From Candidatus Nomurabacteria bacterium (GTDB taxonomy: Bacteria > Patescibacteriota > Minisyncoccia > Phycocordibacterales > UBA9973): a stretch of DNA of 47,457 nucleotides. The position numbers and the translations under genes were made by a program. This document shows, piece after piece, positions 31,231 to 36,350 of this stretch. The DNA lies in assembly GCA_020631955.1 (NCBI GenBank), contig JACKGL010000005.1:1-47457 (forward strand), read 5' to 3'. The notes below the pieces were generated by a model that ran no database searches, had not been told where the DNA came from, and saw only the letters and a program-made list of their open reading frames with translations. Positions within the stretch are counted from its first letter, which is position 1, and each line of letters begins with the position of its first letter.

Positions 31231-31320
31231 GGAGGCGTGGCTGAGTGGTCGAAAGTACCTCACTGCTAACGAGGCGAGCTGTAAAAGGCTCCGAGGGTTC
31301 GAATCCCTCCGCCTCCGCCA
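31231..31320 (+). tRNA. tRNA-Ser (anticodon GCU), long variable arm, encoded CCA
   Basis: GGAGGCG TG GCTGAGTGGTCGAAAGT .. CTGCTAA .. variable arm GAGCTGTAAAAGGCTC .. GAGGG TTCGAAT CCCTC CGCCTCC G CCA. Confidence 0.9.
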
Positions 31321-31482
31321 AGTCGAGCTAGCTCGAGATGCCTTAAAAAATAAGAGTTTTCTCTTATTGAAAATCGCAACCCGTCTAGGACGCAAGAACC
31401 AATGAAAAACATAAAACCACCTCACAAAGGTGTTTTTATGTTTGTTGTAGTAAAAAGCAACAAATTATGCTATACTTCTCCT

Positions 31483-31683
31483 ATGAAAGACGATGCGAAA
31501 AAGTTAGGTGAGAACCTAAAGAAGATCAGAACAGAAAAGGATATTACTCAGGTCGAGATTGCAAAAAAGCTTGATGTAAACCGATCCTTTGTGAGCAACA
31601 TTGAGAACGGAAAAACTAATCCTACTCTTTCAACCATTACCAACCTAGCCAGAAGCTCATGGCCGGCCAGTTCTTTTCTTTGA
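31483..31683 (+). CDS. XRE-family HTH protein, C-terminally aberrant (possible truncation)
   Basis: LGENLKKIRTEKDITQVEIAKKLDVNRSFVSNIENGKTNPTLSTITNLA is a canonical Cro/C1 HTH. The tail SSWPASSFL overlaps the convergent gene by 47 nt. TATACT lies 6 nt before the ATG at 31483. Confidence 0.6.
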   Translation: MKDDAKKLGENLKKIRTEKDITQVEIAKKLDVNRSFVSNIENGKTNPTLSTITNLARSSWPASSFL

Positions 31684-31894
31684 TGAGGTTGAGCAATTGC
31701 ACTTCGGTCATATCGTTCACAAACGCCTCACCCTCAACCAAGGCTTCGTCCATGGCGGTCAGAAACTCTGGGTCATTCTGTCGCCACCGATAAGCACTCA
31801 TGCGAGAGATTCCAACCTTGTCACACGCGATTCTTACTACGGGAACTTTCCGAAGGTTCTCCAAGAACTCCTCCTGCTTTTTATTTTTCTTCAT
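31637..31894 (-). CDS. Phage-type HTH protein (terminase small-subunit N-terminal-like)
   Basis: 85 aa. ACDKVGISRMSAYRWRQNDPEFLTAMDEAL is the HTH found at the N-terminus of small terminase/TerS-like proteins. Its start overlaps the methylase stop by 14 nt. Confidence 0.45.
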   Translation of the reverse strand: MKKNKKQEEFLENLRKVPVVRIACDKVGISRMSAYRWRQNDPEFLTAMDEALVEGEAFVNDMTEVQLLNLIKEKNWPAMSFWLGW

Positions 31895-33191
31895 AGTGTT
31901 CGATGACTGCCTTCAGTCCCGTTAGTTTCTCAAAGCGTTTGATTGCCAAGTCACAAAAGACTGGCTCGAGTTCGACCGCGTATACTCGACGCTTCAGCAT
32001 TTCTCCTGCAATGAGCGTACTTGCAGACCCAGAGAACGAATCAAGAATTATGTCGTCAGGCTTGGTACAGCGGCGTATTGCTTTCTCGTGGAGCGTCGGC
32101 GGCTTGCTTGTGGCGTGTTCATACTCCCTGGAAGAAAGTCGCTTTGCTGTCCAGATTTCAATAAAGTCATCCACTTGGGCAATAAGATCATTGCCGGTGG
32201 TAAACTCTTTGTTCATCACCTCATTGAGATCCTTAATGGATTCCGCAAGGTAGGGTCTGCCTCGAGTTCCGTATACCGCAGGTTCGTATGCCTTGTTGCA
32301 ATATACTTTTGGCACAGGGTTCTGAGAATTCTTCAACCACAAGCATACTCGCTTATTGGTAATGCCAATCGAGCGGTACACCTCTTGAATCAGTCCGATG
32401 TAGATTTGGTCGCAGTAGTAGAAAACATGGGTGTCTGGATTTGCTACGGCAAGCGCGCTGGTGAGACTGTCCTTAATGAACTTCTTGTACTCGTCATAAG
32501 TGCGAGTATCGTTCACATTTCCTCCGTAACTTTGCTTGCCGCCAATACCGCCGTCATAGTTGATAGAAATATTGTAAACAGGGTCCGAATAGATCATCGA
32601 TACCTTTTCATTGCCGACCAGTCGCTTGAGAACATTCGGATCAGTTGAGTCTCCACAGATAAGGCGGTGTCTGCCGAGGGTGATAATGTCACCCAGTTTT
32701 GTAATAGGCTTCTTTATCTGTTTTAACTCCTTTTCTATATTGAAGTCGTCGTCTTTGGTTTCCAGTTCTTTGTCCCAGAACTTCGCCAAATCTACTTGGT
32801 CGAATCCAACGTCAAGAAGCATGTCGAAATCGAATGCTTTCAATTTATCCATGTCCCAATCTCCGCCAACTGCGTTGCTGGTTATAAGGTATTGGTCGTA
32901 CTCCTTTTGGGTGAGTTTACGATTCGGTACCCGCACTTCTATTTCTTCATTGCCACGCCCGAGTATTTGCAATGCTCGGATTCTTTGGTGTCCTGCGATT
33001 ATCTTTCCGTCCGTGTCTATTGCAGGAATTTCAACCAAGTTGAATCTGGTAAGACTTTTCTTAAGGTCGTTCATCTGTTTGTCGCTGATTGAACGAGGGT
33101 TCTTTGCATAGGGTAAAAGAGCGTCTACGACACGCTTTTCCGTATGCCAAATTAGTTTCTTTGACATAGTTATATAAGGCAGTTTTTCCAT
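31881..33191 (-). CDS. ParB-like nuclease domain fused to an N4/N6 DNA methyltransferase
   Basis: 436 aa. ParB-N box (IIAGHQRIRAL), then methylase motif IV variant SDPVYN and motif I ILDSFSGSASTLIAGE. No restriction partner is visible, which is the phage/plasmid orphan-methylase architecture. Confidence 0.8.
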   Translation of the reverse strand: MEKLPYITMSKKLIWHTEKRVVDALLPYAKNPRSISDKQMNDLKKSLTRFNLVEIPAIDTDGKIIAGHQRIRALQILGRGNEEIEVRVPNRKLTQKEYDQYLITSNAVGGDWDMDKLKAFDFDMLLDVGFDQVDLAKFWDKELETKDDDFNIEKELKQIKKPITKLGDIITLGRHRLICGDSTDPNVLKRLVGNEKVSMIYSDPVYNISINYDGGIGGKQSYGGNVNDTRTYDEYKKFIKDSLTSALAVANPDTHVFYYCDQIYIGLIQEVYRSIGITNKRVCLWLKNSQNPVPKVYCNKAYEPAVYGTRGRPYLAESIKDLNEVMNKEFTTGNDLIAQVDDFIEIWTAKRLSSREYEHATSKPPTLHEKAIRRCTKPDDIILDSFSGSASTLIAGEMLKRRVYAVELEPVFCDLAIKRFEKLTGLKAVIEHYEEK

Positions 33192-33436
33192 ACGAAAAAA
33201 CCACTAGTTAAATGAATAAAATTCCTTTTCTAGTTCCTTATACCAATGTGAGTTCTGCTCCTCGTTGGTTGTGGAAGCCTTGGGCGAATGCGCAAGGACT
33301 CGAACCGTACGACTTACTTGGATTAAAAAGTTCTGCTCTTTAATCGGTAGCGATCCAATCCGACCGGTTTTTCCGATCAGAAACGGTTGTTATCTAATAT
33401 TATACATCATATTCTTATTTTTGGTAAAATAGGGTT

Positions 33437-34432
33437 ATGAACGGTCGAGAGGATTTGAACAAAATGAAACAAGAGGCTCAAGACGCTGAAAATGGGAAGA
33501 GGTACTTCGAGGCGTCTATTTTATATAAGAATCTCCTTGCGGAAGCGAATAAGCAAAATAATTCAGAACTCATTGCAGAAGCAAAGAATAAAATGGTCGA
33601 AATGAATGGACTTGCAGAGGGGGAATATAAAGAGATTACGGGAGAGACGGAAGTTTCTCGTGAGGATATAGAAAAGCAGATCAAATATATTCTTGGAGAC
33701 AGTGAGAAACTTGATGATGTCCTGTACAGGATAGGTCATCATCCTCACATGTATCCAAAGAAAAAAGAGATAGAGGATACTACAGTTGTTCCTATATTTC
33801 GGGCACTAGCTTCAAATCACATAACATCAAAGGATAATCATGCATTGGGTGGAAATGACCAAAAATACATTTCATATATAGAAAACTATGGAATGCATCA
33901 AAGTGTAATTATGCAATTATGCATGGGTCGCTTGTTCAACGAACTCTACACCAAGTATGGACTGAACTCGGACACACTTACGGCCTATTTTGAGAGTAAG
34001 AAAGTCTTTTCTCAAGAGAATTTATTCTTTATTAAGTCAGGTTTGAAAAACTTCTTTGAGGAGGATTATTGCGCTGCAATACATGTTCTTGTGCCGAGAT
34101 TTGAGAGATGCTTCGTAGAGCTGTCAAAAGCACTTGGTATTAATACGGTTTCCTTAAAAAGAAACAAGAAAGGTGTTGATGACGTTGTTACTTCCGATAT
34201 AACCCTTTCTATTGATCTTCTTCGTAAGAAAGAATTTACCGACAAGTGGACTGAGGATTTTTGCGAGCATGTTATTTATGTGTTCTATGAGCGTCTTGGG
34301 TATGGACTTAGGCACAAAGTTGCCCATGGAACATTATCGTCTGGTGAAGCACATAAAAATGCGTGCGAACTGATCATCTACTTCTATCTAGTATTGGCGG
34401 CAAGAATAAAGATGAAAAATACTGACAAATAA
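33437..34432 (+). CDS. DUF4209-like protein with a C-terminal R-x4-H (HEPN-like) motif
   Basis: 331 aa. HVLVPRFERCFVELSKALG followed ~70 aa later by GYGLRHKVAHGTLS. TAAAAT lies 6 nt before the ATG. Confidence 0.45.
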   Translation: MNGREDLNKMKQEAQDAENGKRYFEASILYKNLLAEANKQNNSELIAEAKNKMVEMNGLAEGEYKEITGETEVSREDIEKQIKYILGDSEKLDDVLYRIGHHPHMYPKKKEIEDTTVVPIFRALASNHITSKDNHALGGNDQKYISYIENYGMHQSVIMQLCMGRLFNELYTKYGLNSDTLTAYFESKKVFSQENLFFIKSGLKNFFEEDYCAAIHVLVPRFERCFVELSKALGINTVSLKRNKKGVDDVVTSDITLSIDLLRKKEFTDKWTEDFCEHVIYVFYERLGYGLRHKVAHGTLSSGEAHKNACELIIYFYLVLAARIKMKNTDK

Positions 34433-34439
34433 TGTTTTT

Positions 34440-34469
34440 AAAAAAGTTACAGAGAATTGTAACTTTTTT
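34440..34469 (+). terminator. Intrinsic terminator of cassette 1
   Basis: aaaaaa-gttac-agagaatt-gtaac-tttttt. Confidence 0.7.
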
Positions 34470-34509
34470 AAAAACATGAGAAATGTGTCACTTTTGTAAC
34501 TTTTTGGGT

Positions 34510-34602
34510 GCTCGAGACCCTTCAGAAATATTTTCTAAAAAATGCTAAAATAACCTTACTGGGCTTGACCTCAAAAGGTTCTAACTCGAGATTGCCCGCC
34601 CG
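34510..34602 (+). repeat. Inter-cassette repeat, copy 1 (~93 nt)
   Basis: GCTCGAGACCC...ATGCTAAAATAACCTTACTGGGCTTGACCTCAAAAGGTTCTAACTCGAGATTGCCCGCCCG. Collinear similarity to copies 2 and 3. Confidence 0.6.
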
Positions 34603-34665
34603 AAATACTTGTTATCGGCAGACCCGACTGCCTAGGACTGTGGGACAACCCGAAAACCTATAGAT

Positions 34666-35217
34666 ATGAAATACGTATATCATTCATCGAAAACTCAAGG
34701 ATTGAAAAATATTGAACCACGAATAAGTACTCATGGAAATTCTTGGGTGTATGCGATGGAAAAACCTGAATATTGTTTGATGTTTCTCGGTAATCACGGA
34801 GACATTATCAATCAGACTGGTTTTACAGGTGGTATACCTTATATTGCCGAACGGTTTGAAGGAGCGCTTGAATATGCTTACAAAGATAAAACAGGCTCCA
34901 TTTATATCCTTGAAGGGCTTGATTTCAAGGCCGGGATGACAACCTTTACCAGAGAATTTGTTTGCGATCATTCTTGTGAGGTGGTTGAAGAACAAAAGAT
35001 TGAAGATACTCTAAAAGAGATCTTACGACTTGAATCGGAAGGAAAAATAAAAATATATAGATATCCTAATTTACCTTCCTGGATGCCGGCGGACAAAAGC
35101 GATTTGATCGAGAAAGTTATCGAATGGGCGAAGAAACCTGGGAGCACTATTTTGGAAGCGGTGAAAGAATTTCATCCTGACATTTTAAATAAAGTTACCC
35201 AGAAATTGAAAAATTAG
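34666..35217 (+). CDS. Hypothetical protein, possible ADP-ribosyltransferase-fold enzyme (weak motif evidence only)
   Basis: 183 aa. N-terminal VYHSS (H6), SWVYAM (Y29) and TREFVC (E97) could form an H-Y-E triad. The start resembles the LYHGT NAD-lobe motif of KptA/Tpt1-type enzymes. Confidence 0.3.
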   Translation: MKYVYHSSKTQGLKNIEPRISTHGNSWVYAMEKPEYCLMFLGNHGDIINQTGFTGGIPYIAERFEGALEYAYKDKTGSIYILEGLDFKAGMTTFTREFVCDHSCEVVEEQKIEDTLKEILRLESEGKIKIYRYPNLPSWMPADKSDLIEKVIEWAKKPGSTILEAVKEFHPDILNKVTQKLKN

Positions 35218-35311
35218 ACCCCGACCCACAAACCTTATTTTAACTTCTAGAACTCTGCTAAAATACTCTTATGGGGCCTCATTGACTTGGTACTGAACCC
35301 GAGTGGCCCGC
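35218..35311 (+). repeat. Inter-cassette repeat, copy 2 (~94 nt)
   Basis: ACCCCGACCC...CTGCTAAAATACTCTTATGGGGCCTCATTGACTTGGTACTGAACCCGAGTGGCCCGC, starting right after the stop codon of cassette 2. Confidence 0.6.
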
Positions 35312-35401
35312 ATCTTAGATGCTAGCACGAGAAGCGTTTAGAAAACGCTTTGTCAAATTTGCATAGAGTAAAATAAGCGGTTCTTCCTATATAATAAGAA
35401 T

Positions 35402-35857
35402 ATGAGCAGATACGTTATTGTCTCTTTTTTAGAGAAAGCTACTCTAGGAATTACGTTTTCTAAATCGGAATGGCTCTTACATCTGACGATTCTCCGTCCA
35501 TTTTTTTCAGACAATGAAGACGGTTATTTAATAGGGATACTGAAAGATTCTCTGTTAGAAAAACAAAAGGTTACTTCGACCGGAAAGGTAAAAGAAATGT
35601 TTGGTCCGAATAAAGACGTAGCAGTTACGGAATTAGAACATAATACTAGGATTCAAGACTTGCACGACAGTATTGAAAGTGCGTTTAAACCATTCATACG
35701 TTTTGAATCCGAACAATACCCCACCTACAGACCACATGTTACAAATCAAGGAAGTAGAGGAATTGTGGTTGGGGAAGAAGTCGTCATTAACTCTGTTTCT
35801 TTGGTAAAAATCGACAATGATTCTCGCCAAGTGTTAGCTACTGTTGCATTAATATAG
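35402..35857 (+). CDS. 2H phosphoesterase superfamily protein (LigT / cyclic phosphodiesterase-like)
   Basis: 151 aa with two H-x-T-x motifs ~84 aa apart: LHLTIL and RPHVTN. TATAAT lies 6 nt before the ATG. Confidence 0.65.
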   Translation: MSRYVIVSFLEKATLGITFSKSEWLLHLTILRPFFSDNEDGYLIGILKDSLLEKQKVTSTGKVKEMFGPNKDVAVTELEHNTRIQDLHDSIESAFKPFIRFESEQYPTYRPHVTNQGSRGIVVGEEVVINSVSLVKIDNDSRQVLATVALI

Positions 35858-35862
35858 AGACC

Positions 35863-35951
35863 GCTCGAGACACATCAATCTAAAGTCTGGAATAATACTA
35901 AATAGCCTTACAGAGCTTGTCCGAGAAAAGTTCCAACACGACGCTCTCCGC
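35863..35951 (+). repeat. Inter-cassette repeat, copy 3 (~89 nt), at the island/backbone junction
   Basis: GCTCGAGACAC...TACTAAATAGCCTTACAGAGCTTGTCCGAGAAAAGTTCCAACACGACGCTCTCCGC, starting 6 nt after the stop codon of cassette 3. Confidence 0.55.
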
Positions 35952-36011
35952 AGATTGAAAAACTTCTATTTTTATAAGATAATATAATTATTAGTATTTA
36001 TCTTTAAAATC

Positions 36012-36350
36012 ATGGAAGAAGTATCACAAACAACACCAAAACAAAACCCTATGGCAGGTTTTGTCGAATTTATACGTACACAAGGAGTTGTCGGACTGGC
36101 GGTCGGATTTATCTTAGGAGGCGCAGTATCAAAACTAGTCTCTGCTTTAGTAGAAAATATTATCAATCCACTAGTAGGTCTAGCGCTAGGAAAAGTAGAT
36201 CTCGCAGACAAAGCTGTCATGCTCGGTGATGCTTCTTTAAACTACGGTGCTTTTGTATCTACAATGATAGATTTCATCATCATAGCTGCAGTCGTATATT
36301 TCGGTGTAAAAGGTCTTGGTTTAGACAAACTTGATAAACCAAAAGCATAA
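36012..36350 (+). CDS. mscL: Large-conductance mechanosensitive channel
   Basis: 112 aa. GFVEFIRTQGVVGLAVGFILGGAVSKLVSALVENIINPLVG. Confidence 0.9.
   Translation: MEEVSQTTPKQNPMAGFVEFIRTQGVVGLAVGFILGGAVSKLVSALVENIINPLVGLALGKVDLADKAVMLGDASLNYGAFVSTMIDFIIIAAVVYFGVKGLGLDKLDKPKA

Follow-up and report, generated by a model that had tools for sequence, protein, structure and literature searches.

Tandem elements without a recombinase of their own, closed by attR-like repeats, at the 3' end of a tRNA-Ser gene in Patescibacteria

Results

Three homologous repeats downstream of tRNA-Ser(GCU)

The region downstream of the tRNA-Ser(GCU) gene in the window (the whole stretch of 47,457 nt that was analysed, from a Saccharibacteria-like bacterium) contains a 4.6-kb island in which each of three units ends with a copy of the same repeat. 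This raises the question of what the repeats are, and how the genes between them came to stand at this tRNA. The explanation that we favour, and as a whole hold to be likely, is that the island consists of three integrative elements in tandem, C, B and A, which have no recombinase of their own and stand at the extreme 3' end of the tRNA gene, and that the repeats are the element-side attR arms (P arms) of these tandemly accreted elements.

The repeats are about 95-105 nt long and lie on the forward strand. Copy 1 (34492..34599; nhmmer E = 2.8e-19, cross-validated E = 0.002-0.02, eight-member alignment) closes element C and ends with AACTCGAGATTGCCCGC. Copy 2 (35204..35311; E = 2.2e-16 with an HMM constructed from out-of-window members only) closes element B and ends with AACCCGAGTGGCCCGC, and copy 3 (35845..35951; nhmmer E = 2.3e-17) closes element A and ends with CACGACGCTCTCCGC. 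The right boundaries, 34599, 35311 and 35951, are exact. A preceding sequence-only reading had placed collinear copies at 34510-34602, 35218-35311 and 35863-35951, and the profile matches bear this placement out.

The similarity of copies 1 and 3 (z = 11.4) and of copies 1 and 2 (z = 5.1) was not equalled by any of 1000 dinucleotide shuffles. That of copies 2 and 3, compared with dinucleotide shuffles in the same way, is not significant if taken alone (z = 1.3); the proposed similarity thus stands above the shuffled background for two pairs and not for the third, and it is the profiles that link all three copies. The HMM of three out-of-window right ends (those of element D, described below, and of loci L107 and L037), which yields the above score for copy 2, also detects copy 1, correctly registered, with E = 0.021, and an HMM of copies 1 and 3 recovers copy 2 at E = 0.0095. 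The copies are homologous and fall into two subtypes, type I (copies 1 and 3) and type II (copy 2). No Rfam family was found in the copies at E <= 10. Copies 1 and 3 can be translated in one reading frame as ITLLGLTSKGSN and IALQSLSEKSSN, respectively. The idea of a coding remnant was dropped for three reasons: the alignment cannot be made without an indel that shifts the frame, stop codons interrupt this frame upstream in copy 3, and the frame is not kept in the type-II members.

In the alignment of eight family members conservation ends abruptly past an invariant CCGC. All copies are closed by YCCGC, and so is the tRNA-Ser(GCU) gene, at 31318. This gene (31231..31320, forward strand; ARAGORN, and 55 bits with the Rfam tRNA model) is identified as the integration target by comparison with empty sites, and the junctions are all placed after its ...CTCCGC, the last base of which is 31318. 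The last copy had been proposed to sit at the border of the island with the backbone, and this is exact: the empty site reads tRNA ...CTCCGC followed by AGATTGAAAAAC, and copy 3 reads ...CTCTCCGC followed by the same AGATTGAAAAAC.

Folding, tRNA similarity and promoter-like sites

The layout formally resembles an integron cassette array, as the sequence-only reading had noted: there is one gene and one element per unit, all genes point the same way, and an integrase is lacking nearby. The copies would then be attC sites, which a tyrosine integron integrase recombines in folded single-stranded form, and the island would be an integrase-less array (CALIN). However, shuffled sequences fold as well as the copies do, on both strands (z from -1.0 to +0.8), and six members contain no conserved or covarying hairpin. 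The consensus fold reaches only -2.7 kcal/mol, with a weak stem of seven pairs and compensatory changes in just two of them. The conservation is in sequence, not in structure. Moreover, no R''/R' cores had been seen in the sequence-only reading, the autonomous relatives carry a serine recombinase and not IntI, and the array is headed by a tRNA end and not by attI. Integron attC identity was therefore rejected, as there is no folded attC and no IntI or attI at the head, and we give it practically no credence. Lacking both fold and intI, the locus is like an integron only in form.

The copies could also be displaced, heavily diverged 3' halves of tRNA-Ser left by islands with tyrosine integrases. 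Indeed, the tRNA and the copies alike carry GGTTC..AA, placed 23 nt ahead of CCGC, copy 2 contains the word CTGCTAA, and positions -23..-5 match the tRNA in 7-10 of 19 positions (null P(>=8) = 0.05 per site). A weak resemblance to the tRNA from the anticodon loop to the 3' end had been suggested; what stands is this half-site-like similarity of about 20 nt, as similarity over positions -60..-24 is no better than chance, and CTGCTAA is displaced by 2 nt from the register of the tRNA. At E <= 100, the right-end HMM gives no match to any of the 64 tRNA-Ser genes present in related loci totalling 1.28 Mb, and with the Rfam tRNA model nothing is detected at the copies at E <= 10. Comparison with empty sites shows just CCGC(A) to be shared across the crossover, and no element contains a tyrosine integrase. 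As the similarity is confined to some 20 nt beside the crossover, the copies are not copies of the tRNA 3' half, and we consider such an origin extremely unlikely.

Finally, the copies could be regulatory modules of the downstream genes, such as outward promoters, leaders or terminators, unrelated to recombination. An extended -10-like word, TGCTAAAAT, is found in copies 1 and 2 as well as in L037 and L209, at a distance of 110-140 nt upstream of the ORF that follows. However, it is absent or altered in copy 3, in the right end of D, and in L107 and L115. A scan for two promoter hexamers produced five promoter-like sites, equal to the mean of shuffles, and none of them is in copies 1 or 2; copy 3 contains only a weak 9/12 match at 35867-35896 (GAGACA-18-AATAAT). 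There is no stable fold, and conservation stops exactly at the junction where the strains differ. A regulatory origin is thus very improbable, and a promoter could be a secondary function of the arm.

Elements C, B and A

Element C (31319..34599, forward strand, 3281 bp) is decayed and has no recombinase. According to Pfam, it contains an XRE fragment (31402-31683, forward strand), a TerS-like HTH gene (31637-31894) and a ParB-methyltransferase gene (31881-33191), both on the reverse strand, and a cargo gene with DUF4209 (33437-34432, forward strand). A joint skipping 3281 nt, exactly 31319-34599, is present in three runs. Its left end, a candidate P' arm of type I read from the sequence (31319..31345, forward strand, CAAGTCGAGCTAGCTCGAGATGCC), has GCTAGC.CGAGA in common with the left end of A.

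Element B (34600..35311, forward strand, 712 bp) is a single-gene cassette with a 183-aa ORF at 34666-35217. Its limits are given by the junction of copy 2 with A and by tRNA|B, which is present in L027 and runs X7, X8 and X9. Its left end, a candidate P' arm of type II (34600..34640, forward strand, CCGAAATACTTGTTATCGGCAGACCCGACTGCC), carries GACCCG at +22..+27. The motif TATCGG..GACC of this end also occurs in the left ends of the unrelated element E and of L036, L167 and L238, three of which adjoin large serine recombinase (LSR) genes.

Element A (35312..35951, forward strand, 640 bp) is likewise a single-gene cassette; its ORF at 35402-35857 encodes 151 residues similar to 2H phosphoesterases (Pfam). 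In L006 it is the sole insert between the tRNA gene and mscL, with 0 mismatches. Its left end, a candidate P' arm of type I (35312..35340, forward strand, ATCTTAGATGCTAGCACGAGAAGCG), is joined directly to tRNA ...CTCCGC in L006 and in run X1. The backbone side of the presumed attB, the B' flank (35952..35985, forward strand), is the sequence that follows the tRNA in empty-site strains, and a promoter scan found in it a promoter-like site of mscL, TTGAAA-17-GATAAT, starting 4 nt past the junction.

One of the cargo genes matches a candidate defence family.

Presence and absence in sister strains

Sister strains hold zero, one, two, three or four elements, with borders exactly at the repeats. 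The observed states form a nested series: tRNA|mscL (empty), tRNA|A|mscL, tRNA|B|A, tRNA|C|B|A|mscL (the window) and tRNA|C|B|A|D|mscL, what comes after copy 3 is the backbone AGATTG... in some strains and the left end of D, ATTGACAACC, in others. Element E also occupies this tRNA. All eight junction types are directly after YCCGC; they have only CCGC in common, and the bases on either side segregate with their own arms. The breaks in Logan unitigs are exactly at CCGC(A).

Strains with A only, C-B-A, C-B-A-D and E have 0 mismatches across 3.3-3.5 kb of flank. Different states coexist in single samples: the depths of tRNA|B and tRNA|C were 11.8 and about 4.4, 14.4 and 42, and 18.7 and 50, and A|mscL and A|D were present at about 1:1. 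In one wastewater population, at least seven distinct inserts (A, B, a variant of B, C, D, E and one further right end) were observed at a single tRNA-Ser end. Every boundary is polymorphic (tRNA|mscL, tRNA|A, tRNA|B|A, A|mscL versus A|D), which agrees with the suggestion of the sequence-only reading that the copies are serial att scars of repeated integration at the tRNA; a single block of three genes with fixed boundaries, named beforehand as a possible refutation, was not what the sister genomes held. A, B and C are gained or lost as units at att boundaries, as seen in tRNA|A, tRNA|B|A and the empty site, and so is D; some of these differences are on identical flanks.

These data bear on the possibility that the three elements are decayed remnants, no longer able to recombine, and that the strains differ only via homologous recombination of the conserved flanks (abc/tRNA, mscL) with DNA of other strains, or via old lineage sorting. 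The window contains no recombinase, and the empty-site strain L001 is 1.6-1.9% diverged. In L003 one flank is identical and the other diverged, the pattern expected from flank recombination or from a chimeric contig. Circular or excised junctions were seen neither in assemblies nor in Logan contigs of 12 runs, a weak result, as contigs drop rare forms. The tRNA|B junctions invariably occur with a distinct tRNA allele, CCGTCTCCGC, and thus at least the tRNA|B state marks a lineage and not an event inside one clone. On the other hand, A-only, C-B-A and C-B-A-D are found on flanks without mismatches, and exchange of flanks with a C-B-A donor cannot yield tRNA|A or tRNA|B, for which an event at the internal CCGC sites is required. 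Furthermore, the arms are conserved between species, and single samples contain this site both with and without an LSR element that looks active. We consider dead remnants unlikely, but a more serious alternative than those discussed above; the reading of the copies as attR arms of mobile elements is preferred.

Element D and related recombinase loci

A Pfam scan of every ORF in A, B and C and a tblastn search of the 47-kb window with the LSR described here detected no recombinase. The absence of an integrase from the earlier account thus holds for the window, but not for the sister strains, where element D (17.4 kb) occupies the same site and encodes an LSR. This protein, LSR435, is intact (435 aa), with the catalytic region YVRKST and the Resolvase, Recombinase and Zn_ribbon domains (PF00239, PF07508, PF13408). 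Its best family match is CcrB (1.2e-40), at 140 bits far below the family cut-off of 900 bits, and its best solved relative is SprA/YokA of SPbeta. D also contains a truncated paralogue of the LSR. No other recombinase was found in D, and tyrosine recombinases are absent from both the window region and D. The right end of D belongs to the copy-2 type and agrees with copy 2 in each of its last 17 nt.

Homologues of the D recombinase in Patescibacteria are convergent to tRNA-Ser genes. Among the 100 tRNAs in 80 homologous LSR loci, 64 are tRNA-Ser. A convergent tRNA-Ser gene is found at most 3.5 kb from the LSR stop codon in 22 of the 51 loci that extend far enough, and tRNA-Asn takes its place in eight more. 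Homologues of the ParB-methyltransferase of element C are present in the majority of the 80 loci; a search of IMG/VR with this protein yielded one relative at 68%, without the ends.

A right end similar to the window copies closes LSR elements elsewhere, in L107, L037 and L238 (E from 1e-22 to 4e-16; type II in all three), as well as two further single-gene cassettes at tRNA-Ser, L209 and L115. A metagenome scan with a 27-mer of the tRNA contributed at least L115, L167, L204 and L209; the matches listed were mostly unrelated bacteria sharing the tRNA end. The type-II left and right ends of B are common with D, E, L036, L167 and L238. A junction of a right end and a left end in L238 was considered as a free attP and rejected: as the contig has two LSR genes and host tRNA-Ser genes, L238 is another tandem array. 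An HMM pooled over the left ends of all LSR subfamilies left the window left ends undetected, and being too heterogeneous, it was replaced by comparison of left-end motifs by eye. The left ends in LSR loci carry GACCC(G/A) at +21..+28 after ...TCCGC, as do those of B and D. No autonomous element of type I, that is, of the A and C type, was found, and the attP-like and right-end type-I patterns had no matches; C does, however, carry the ParB-methyltransferase of the family.

Discussion

Proposed mechanism

Three observations lead to the reading of the copies as attR arms: the strains differ directly after CCGC, the only recombinase of D is a CcrB-like LSR in an element with a copy-2-type right end, and homologues of this LSR are convergent to tRNA-Ser genes. 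Each repeat would be a P arm, the element side of an attR-type junction, and its subtypes have matching left ends (type I in A and C, type II in B, D and E). Strand exchange may occur within the shared CCGC or at its end, leaving the mature tRNA unchanged. The enzyme is most probably the CcrB-like LSR, supplied in trans by autonomous relatives such as D. New elements would enter at the tRNA-proximal junction, or at a junction of a P arm with the flank that imitates it, and older ones would be pushed outward; recombination between any two CCGC junctions would remove the block between them. Under this scheme A and B may still be moving as units. The elements probably resemble CIMEs or pseudo-SCC elements that move in trans.

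LSR att sites cross over at a short core with a 2-bp overlap, and attP and attB need share few bases. The characterised attP sites are at most about 50 bp long and roughly symmetric, with imperfect inverted half-sites on either side of the crossover. Here, conservation extends over about 95 nt on one side only, and the predicted attP and attB have inverted-repeat matches around the junction in 11-15 of 30 positions with no consistent centre. The distal 70 nt or so of the arm could contain accessory sites, sites for a directionality factor, or an inherited end sequence. After LSR integration attL and attR are normally not substrates for further integration, and thus repeated entry at tRNA|P' would need a relaxed use of the right half-site.

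Comparison with known systems

Among the closest analogues are SCC and SCCmec composites and the ccr-less pseudo-SCC elements with CcrAB or CcrC (PMC13739063). The recombinase is of the LSR family in both cases, LSR435 having CcrB as its best NCBIfam match; integration is at the 3' end of one conserved gene, and tandem composites are split by internal att sites with short crossover identity. Recombinase-less SCC members keep their att sites and can be excised in trans (PMC13739063); att sites are also kept in the window array, for which we propose excision in trans by analogy. In contrast to SCC, the target is a tRNA-Ser end and not rlmH, a cassette may consist of a single gene (640-712 bp), and the arm is about 95 nt and one-sided, with no degenerate inverted half-sites detected.

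The ssrA islands of Dehalococcoides (DsiB, CcrB-like; PMC3146451) are also tandem, repeat-bounded and downstream of a tRNA-like gene. They share with the loci considered here an integration module by attL on the reverse strand with LSR, ParB-domain and methylase-type genes, and about 85 bp of extra conservation around each repeat. Islands without integration modules were interpreted as cis-mobilizable elements (PMC3146451). However, in Dehalococcoides the 3' end of ssrA is copied in a 20-bp repeat and insertion is in the T-loop (PMC3146451), whereas here only CCGC is shared and insertion follows the discriminator base; those islands are large and carry rdhA, and the host phylum and target gene differ.

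The CIMEs and the site-specific tandem accretion of ICESt1/ICESt3 in Streptococcus thermophilus (reviewed in PMC5704250) involve tyrosine integrases and conjugation, unlike our far smaller elements with a serine recombinase and no conjugation genes. The tycheposons of Prochlorococcus (bioRxiv 10.1101/2020.12.28.424599) are similar in that successive integrations at one tRNA push older elements deeper into the island, cargo-carrying elements stand beside degenerate ones, and populations are heterogeneous for excision. Tyrosine recombinases occur in 910 of 937 tycheposons, and neighbours are separated by partial tRNA copies (bioRxiv 10.1101/2020.12.28.424599); here the separators are element arms and not copies of the tRNA. 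Integron arrays have in common with the window one gene and one recombination element per unit, co-orientation and growth at a fixed platform, but the site here is a conserved double-stranded sequence, and there is no IntI, attI, folded attC or Pc logic.

Thus the kind of system is already known from SCC composites, Dehalococcoides ssrA islands and tycheposons. Its form with tRNA-Ser, a serine recombinase and single-gene cassettes in CPR appears to be undescribed in the literature searched, where no paper on serine recombinases at tRNA-Ser in Patescibacteria was found.

Significance

Specialisation on tRNA gene ends is usually credited to tyrosine integrases. The loci described here point to a clade of serine recombinases with this specialisation and with an att arm that is unusually long and asymmetric. 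The CPR/Patescibacteria have very small genomes, and their gene exchange is little understood; the array, with gains and losses of inserts on otherwise identical chromosomes, offers a concrete and testable route for the turnover of accessory genes. Saccharibacteria are hard to manipulate, and a recombinase for which a natural site in this group is defined could become useful there as a genetic tool.

A broader scenario, which we regard as possible but rather doubtful in its entirety, is that Saccharibacteria and other Patescibacteria have an integron-like gene capture system based on a CcrB-like LSR, in which single-gene cassettes with a portable arm of about 95 nt are individually inserted, excised and reshuffled at the last bases of tRNA-Ser, in trans, by the recombinase of a co-resident element. 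If so, the one-sided long arm without dyad symmetry would represent a novel att architecture among serine recombinases, one that might include res-like accessory sites, and these tiny genomes would gain an exchangeable store of accessory genes, probably directed against phages.

Three homologous copies of one repeat

The region between tRNA-Ser(GCU) (31231-31320) and mscL (36012-36350), the backbone gene to the right of the island, contains six ORFs and three collinear non-coding copies of a repeat, and the positions claimed for these (34510-34602, 35218-35311 and 35863-35951; copies 1, 2 and 3) were borne out in the window. Local alignment against dinucleotide shuffles yields z = 11.4 for copies 1 and 3 and z = 5.1 for copies 1 and 2; copies 2 and 3 are not significantly similar on their own. 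An HMM built from three members of other genomes only matches both copy 2 (E = 2.2e-16) and, in register, copy 1 (E = 0.021), and an HMM of copies 1 and 3 matches copy 2 at E = 0.0095. These profile matches complete the triangle, and therefore all three copies are homologous by sequence; copies 1 and 3 form one subtype (type I) and copy 2 another (type II). This confirms the three related copies of the sequence-only reading. In an eight-member alignment about 95-105 nt are conserved, ending abruptly right after an invariant CCGC. The segment 42811-42950, just upstream of tRNA-Ile(UAU), aligns locally with copy 1 with score 30, equal to the score of copy 1 with copy 2.

The layout had been likened to an integron cassette array. 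This was not borne out. Folding of single-stranded DNA on both strands of the repeats gave z from -1.0 to +0.8, and the only stem common to six members is weak (7 pairs, two with compensatory changes; covariation term +0.08). As the repeats do not fold, attC-type sites are excluded. No Rfam family matches them.

Resemblance to the adjacent tRNA-Ser(GCU) had also been suggested, and it holds near the crossover only. When anchored at the crossover, the repeats match the tRNA above chance at positions -23..-5 (7-10 of 19; GG.T.C..AA..C, spanning the T-loop and acceptor strand). At -60..-24 the matches are at chance level and the profile finds no tRNA-Ser gene; the reading of the repeats as copied tRNA 3' halves is therefore rejected. 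From the sequences we infer that the likeness may reflect target-side (B) and element-side (P) half-sites bound by one enzyme.

The word TGCTAAAAT, present in 4 of 8 members, could be an outward promoter. It is not kept across the family, and a consensus promoter scan, whose sites all lay outside copies 1 and 2, found them no more often than in shuffles. The segment 34432-34477, directly after the stop codon of the DUF4209 gene and upstream of copy 1, holds a perfect inverted repeat of 20 bp (ATGTTTTTAAAAAAGTTACA / TGTAACTTTTTTAAAAACAT) that looks like a bidirectional terminator outside the repeat family.

Variation of the junctions among strains

Searching for exact matches to the proteins of the flanking genes retrieved this locus from further assemblies of the species, from activated sludge and wastewater. 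Two contigs (L001, L003) have the empty site, ...GGTTCGAATCCCTCCGCCTCCGC/AGATTGAAAAACTTC... followed by mscL (slashes mark junctions). In the window the tRNA ends ...CTCCGC/CAAGTCGAG... and copy 3 ends ...CTCTCCGC/AGATTGAAAAAC. Thus the insertion follows the tRNA discriminator base, and the end of copy 3 is an exact junction. All junctions lie directly 3' of YCCGC, and the copies close elements C (31319-34599), B (34600-35311) and A (35312-35951).

Other states of the array were observed. L006 has A alone (tRNA ...CTCCGC/ATCTTAGATGC; tRNA/A/mscL), and L027 and sequencing runs X7-X9 have tRNA/CCGAAATAC, that is, tRNA/B/A. In contig k141_191579 copy 3 is joined to ATTGACAACC..., giving tRNA/C/B/A/D/mscL, where the right end of the additional element D (...CGACCCAC...AACCCGAGTGGCCCGC/AGATTG) is an arm of the copy-2 type. 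A different element, E, follows the tRNA in another MAG (L016; tRNA/ATTGACAAAATAG...). Logan unitigs stop precisely at CCGC or CCGCA, a signature of assembly-graph branching. Within single samples, depths of tRNA/B versus tRNA/C were 11.8 versus ~4.4, 14.4 versus 42 and 18.7 versus 50, and A/mscL and A/D occur at about 1:1; a variant of the B left end also coexists with these, as does a further type-II right end that abuts the mscL flank. Over 3.3-3.5 kb of flank, no mismatch separates the A-only, C-B-A, C-B-A-D and E forms, and the empty-site MAG is 1.6-1.9% diverged.

Strains vary at these boundaries, some of them on flanks with 0 mismatches. This decisively contradicts the absence of boundary polymorphism that would have refuted the sequence-only reading, and the interpretation as serial att scars is supported. 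The arms are likely attR-type ends of elements gained or lost independently.

The empty-site contig L003 is identical to the window on the abc side (0 of 1401 differences); on the mscL side, 3553 nt contain 67 mismatches and 8 gaps. Either natural recombination broke at the att site or the assembly is chimeric. All tRNA/B junctions (L027, X7, X8, X9) have CCGTCTCCGC in place of CCGCCTCCGC in the tRNA-Ser acceptor stem (equivalent of window position 31313), creating a G-U pair. Within element C, the minus strand of 33283-33306, just upstream of the ParB-methyltransferase gene, reads GGTTCGAGTCCTTGCGCATTCGCC(CA), resembling a leftward T-arm and acceptor 3' end of a tRNA, with 79% complementarity to the end of tRNA-Ser (repeat I5); neither ARAGORN nor Rfam calls a tRNA there. 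It may be the scar of another junction, in which case element C would be composite.

Short cassettes and cargo

At least two metagenome contigs of other organisms (L209, L115) have tRNA-Ser(GCU), an insert of 0.85-0.9 kb and a right end (E = 1.6e-14 and 1.4e-8, respectively); therefore the short form is not confined to the strain of the window. The L209 insert is a single-gene cassette with one 183-aa ORF, and that of L115 contains only overlapping ORFs of 111 and 115 aa. At the left end of each cassette the host flank is repeated (L115, 19 nt; L209, 185 nt). The duplicated stretch of L209 (3076-3262 and 3918-4100; ~185 nt) lies right behind the tRNA and again beyond the right end, and it takes in the start (46 codons) of the 291-aa gene downstream. 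It far exceeds the length needed for att identity; this may be host DNA captured through imprecise excision. Both tRNAs carry the same T allele as the tRNA/B junctions. It is possible, if rather doubtful, that elements A and B are still individually mobile.

In a PADLOC search, the DUF4209 protein carried by element C (33437-34432) matches PDC-S39, a candidate for phage defence (E = 6e-14); the alignment covers the C-terminal half of that profile. Neither the 183-aa nor the 151-aa cargo protein has an NCBIfam match or a convincing one in PADLOC, where the 151-aa protein hits Cas5 only weakly (E = 0.0012).

Candidate recombinase

No recombinase is encoded in the window, including elements A, B and C. 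Element D (~17.4 kb) encodes methyltransferases, a ResIII helicase, bAvd, DUF2779, a LexA-like repressor and two large serine recombinases (LSRs); no other recombinase family was found in it. LSR435 (435 aa) is intact, with a YVRKST catalytic region and Resolvase, Recombinase and Zn_ribbon_recom domains. Its nearest curated family is CcrB (E = 1.2e-40, below the equivalog cut-off), and its nearest solved structure is SPbeta SprA/YokA. Its 394-aa paralogue (L012:2895-4079) is without the N-terminal catalytic-serine segment and has stop codons upstream. D could have arisen through fusion of two elements, although no right end was detected in its interior.

A scan of species-representative genomes for LSR homologues gave 80 loci, nearly all from Saccharibacteria or other Patescibacteria. 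They contain 100 tRNA genes, 64 of them tRNA-Ser, with all five anticodons. In 51 loci the sequence extends far enough; of these, 22 have a tRNA-Ser and 8 a tRNA-Asn as the first convergent tRNA no more than 3.5 kb from the stop of the LSR gene. The tRNA adjoining the LSR always ends ...TCCGC, and the adjoining element end has GACCC(G/A) at +21..+28, as do the left ends of B, D and E. The motif TATCGG..GACC of the B left end recurs beside LSR genes in L036, L167 and L238, and the LSR elements of L107, L037 and L238 are closed by type-II right ends (E from 1e-22 to 4e-16). In L238 two LSR elements stand one behind the other at tRNA-Ser. The ParB-methyltransferase of element C is found in the majority of the 80 loci, and we read element C as a decayed member that has lost its own LSR. 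The CcrB-like LSR is probably the enzyme acting at the arms.

The tandem LSRs of L238 (with L242 and L243, a 28-kb IMG/VR contig) are 86% identical, a further example of an accretion array, listed in a viral collection; its cargo includes a Shedu-like gene, a type ISP restriction-modification gene and DUF305.

Proposed model of accretion

An autonomous LSR element would integrate at the tRNA-Ser end, with exchange within CCGC. Elements whose LSR was deleted would retain both ends. Later arrivals would enter at the tRNA-proximal junction or, alternatively, at one that has a P arm, similar to the tRNA end, as its left half. Exchange between any pair of junctions could then remove or move blocks. 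The model has several weak points. Every tRNA/B junction has a private tRNA allele. Hybrid attL/attR sites of serine integrases are not normally substrates for integration. The conserved arm is long and lies on one side of the junction only, and no dyad symmetry is detectable at the inferred att sites. No excised circle was observed in the assemblies or run contigs examined, and a search for an autonomous type-I element found none.

The same scheme is known from CIME/accretion (PMC5704250), SCC composite islands (PMC13739063) and the Dehalococcoides ssrA islands, whose integration module brings together a CcrB-like LSR and genes of the ParB-domain and methylase types (PMC3146451). The general kind, in which a Ccr-like serine recombinase drives tandem elements at a tRNA-like gene and some of these lack a recombinase, is known. 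In the literature searched, no paper was found on such tRNA-Ser elements in Patescibacteria, and the use of tRNA-Ser ends in this group, cassettes as small as one gene, only 4 nt in common with the target and the ~95-nt portable arm appear to make a new variant. A promoter-like site of mscL (35955-35983, TTGAAA-17-GATAAT) starts 4 nt past the integration junction, and therefore the backbone half of attB is predicted to overlap the -35 element; each insertion parts this predicted promoter from its upstream sequence.
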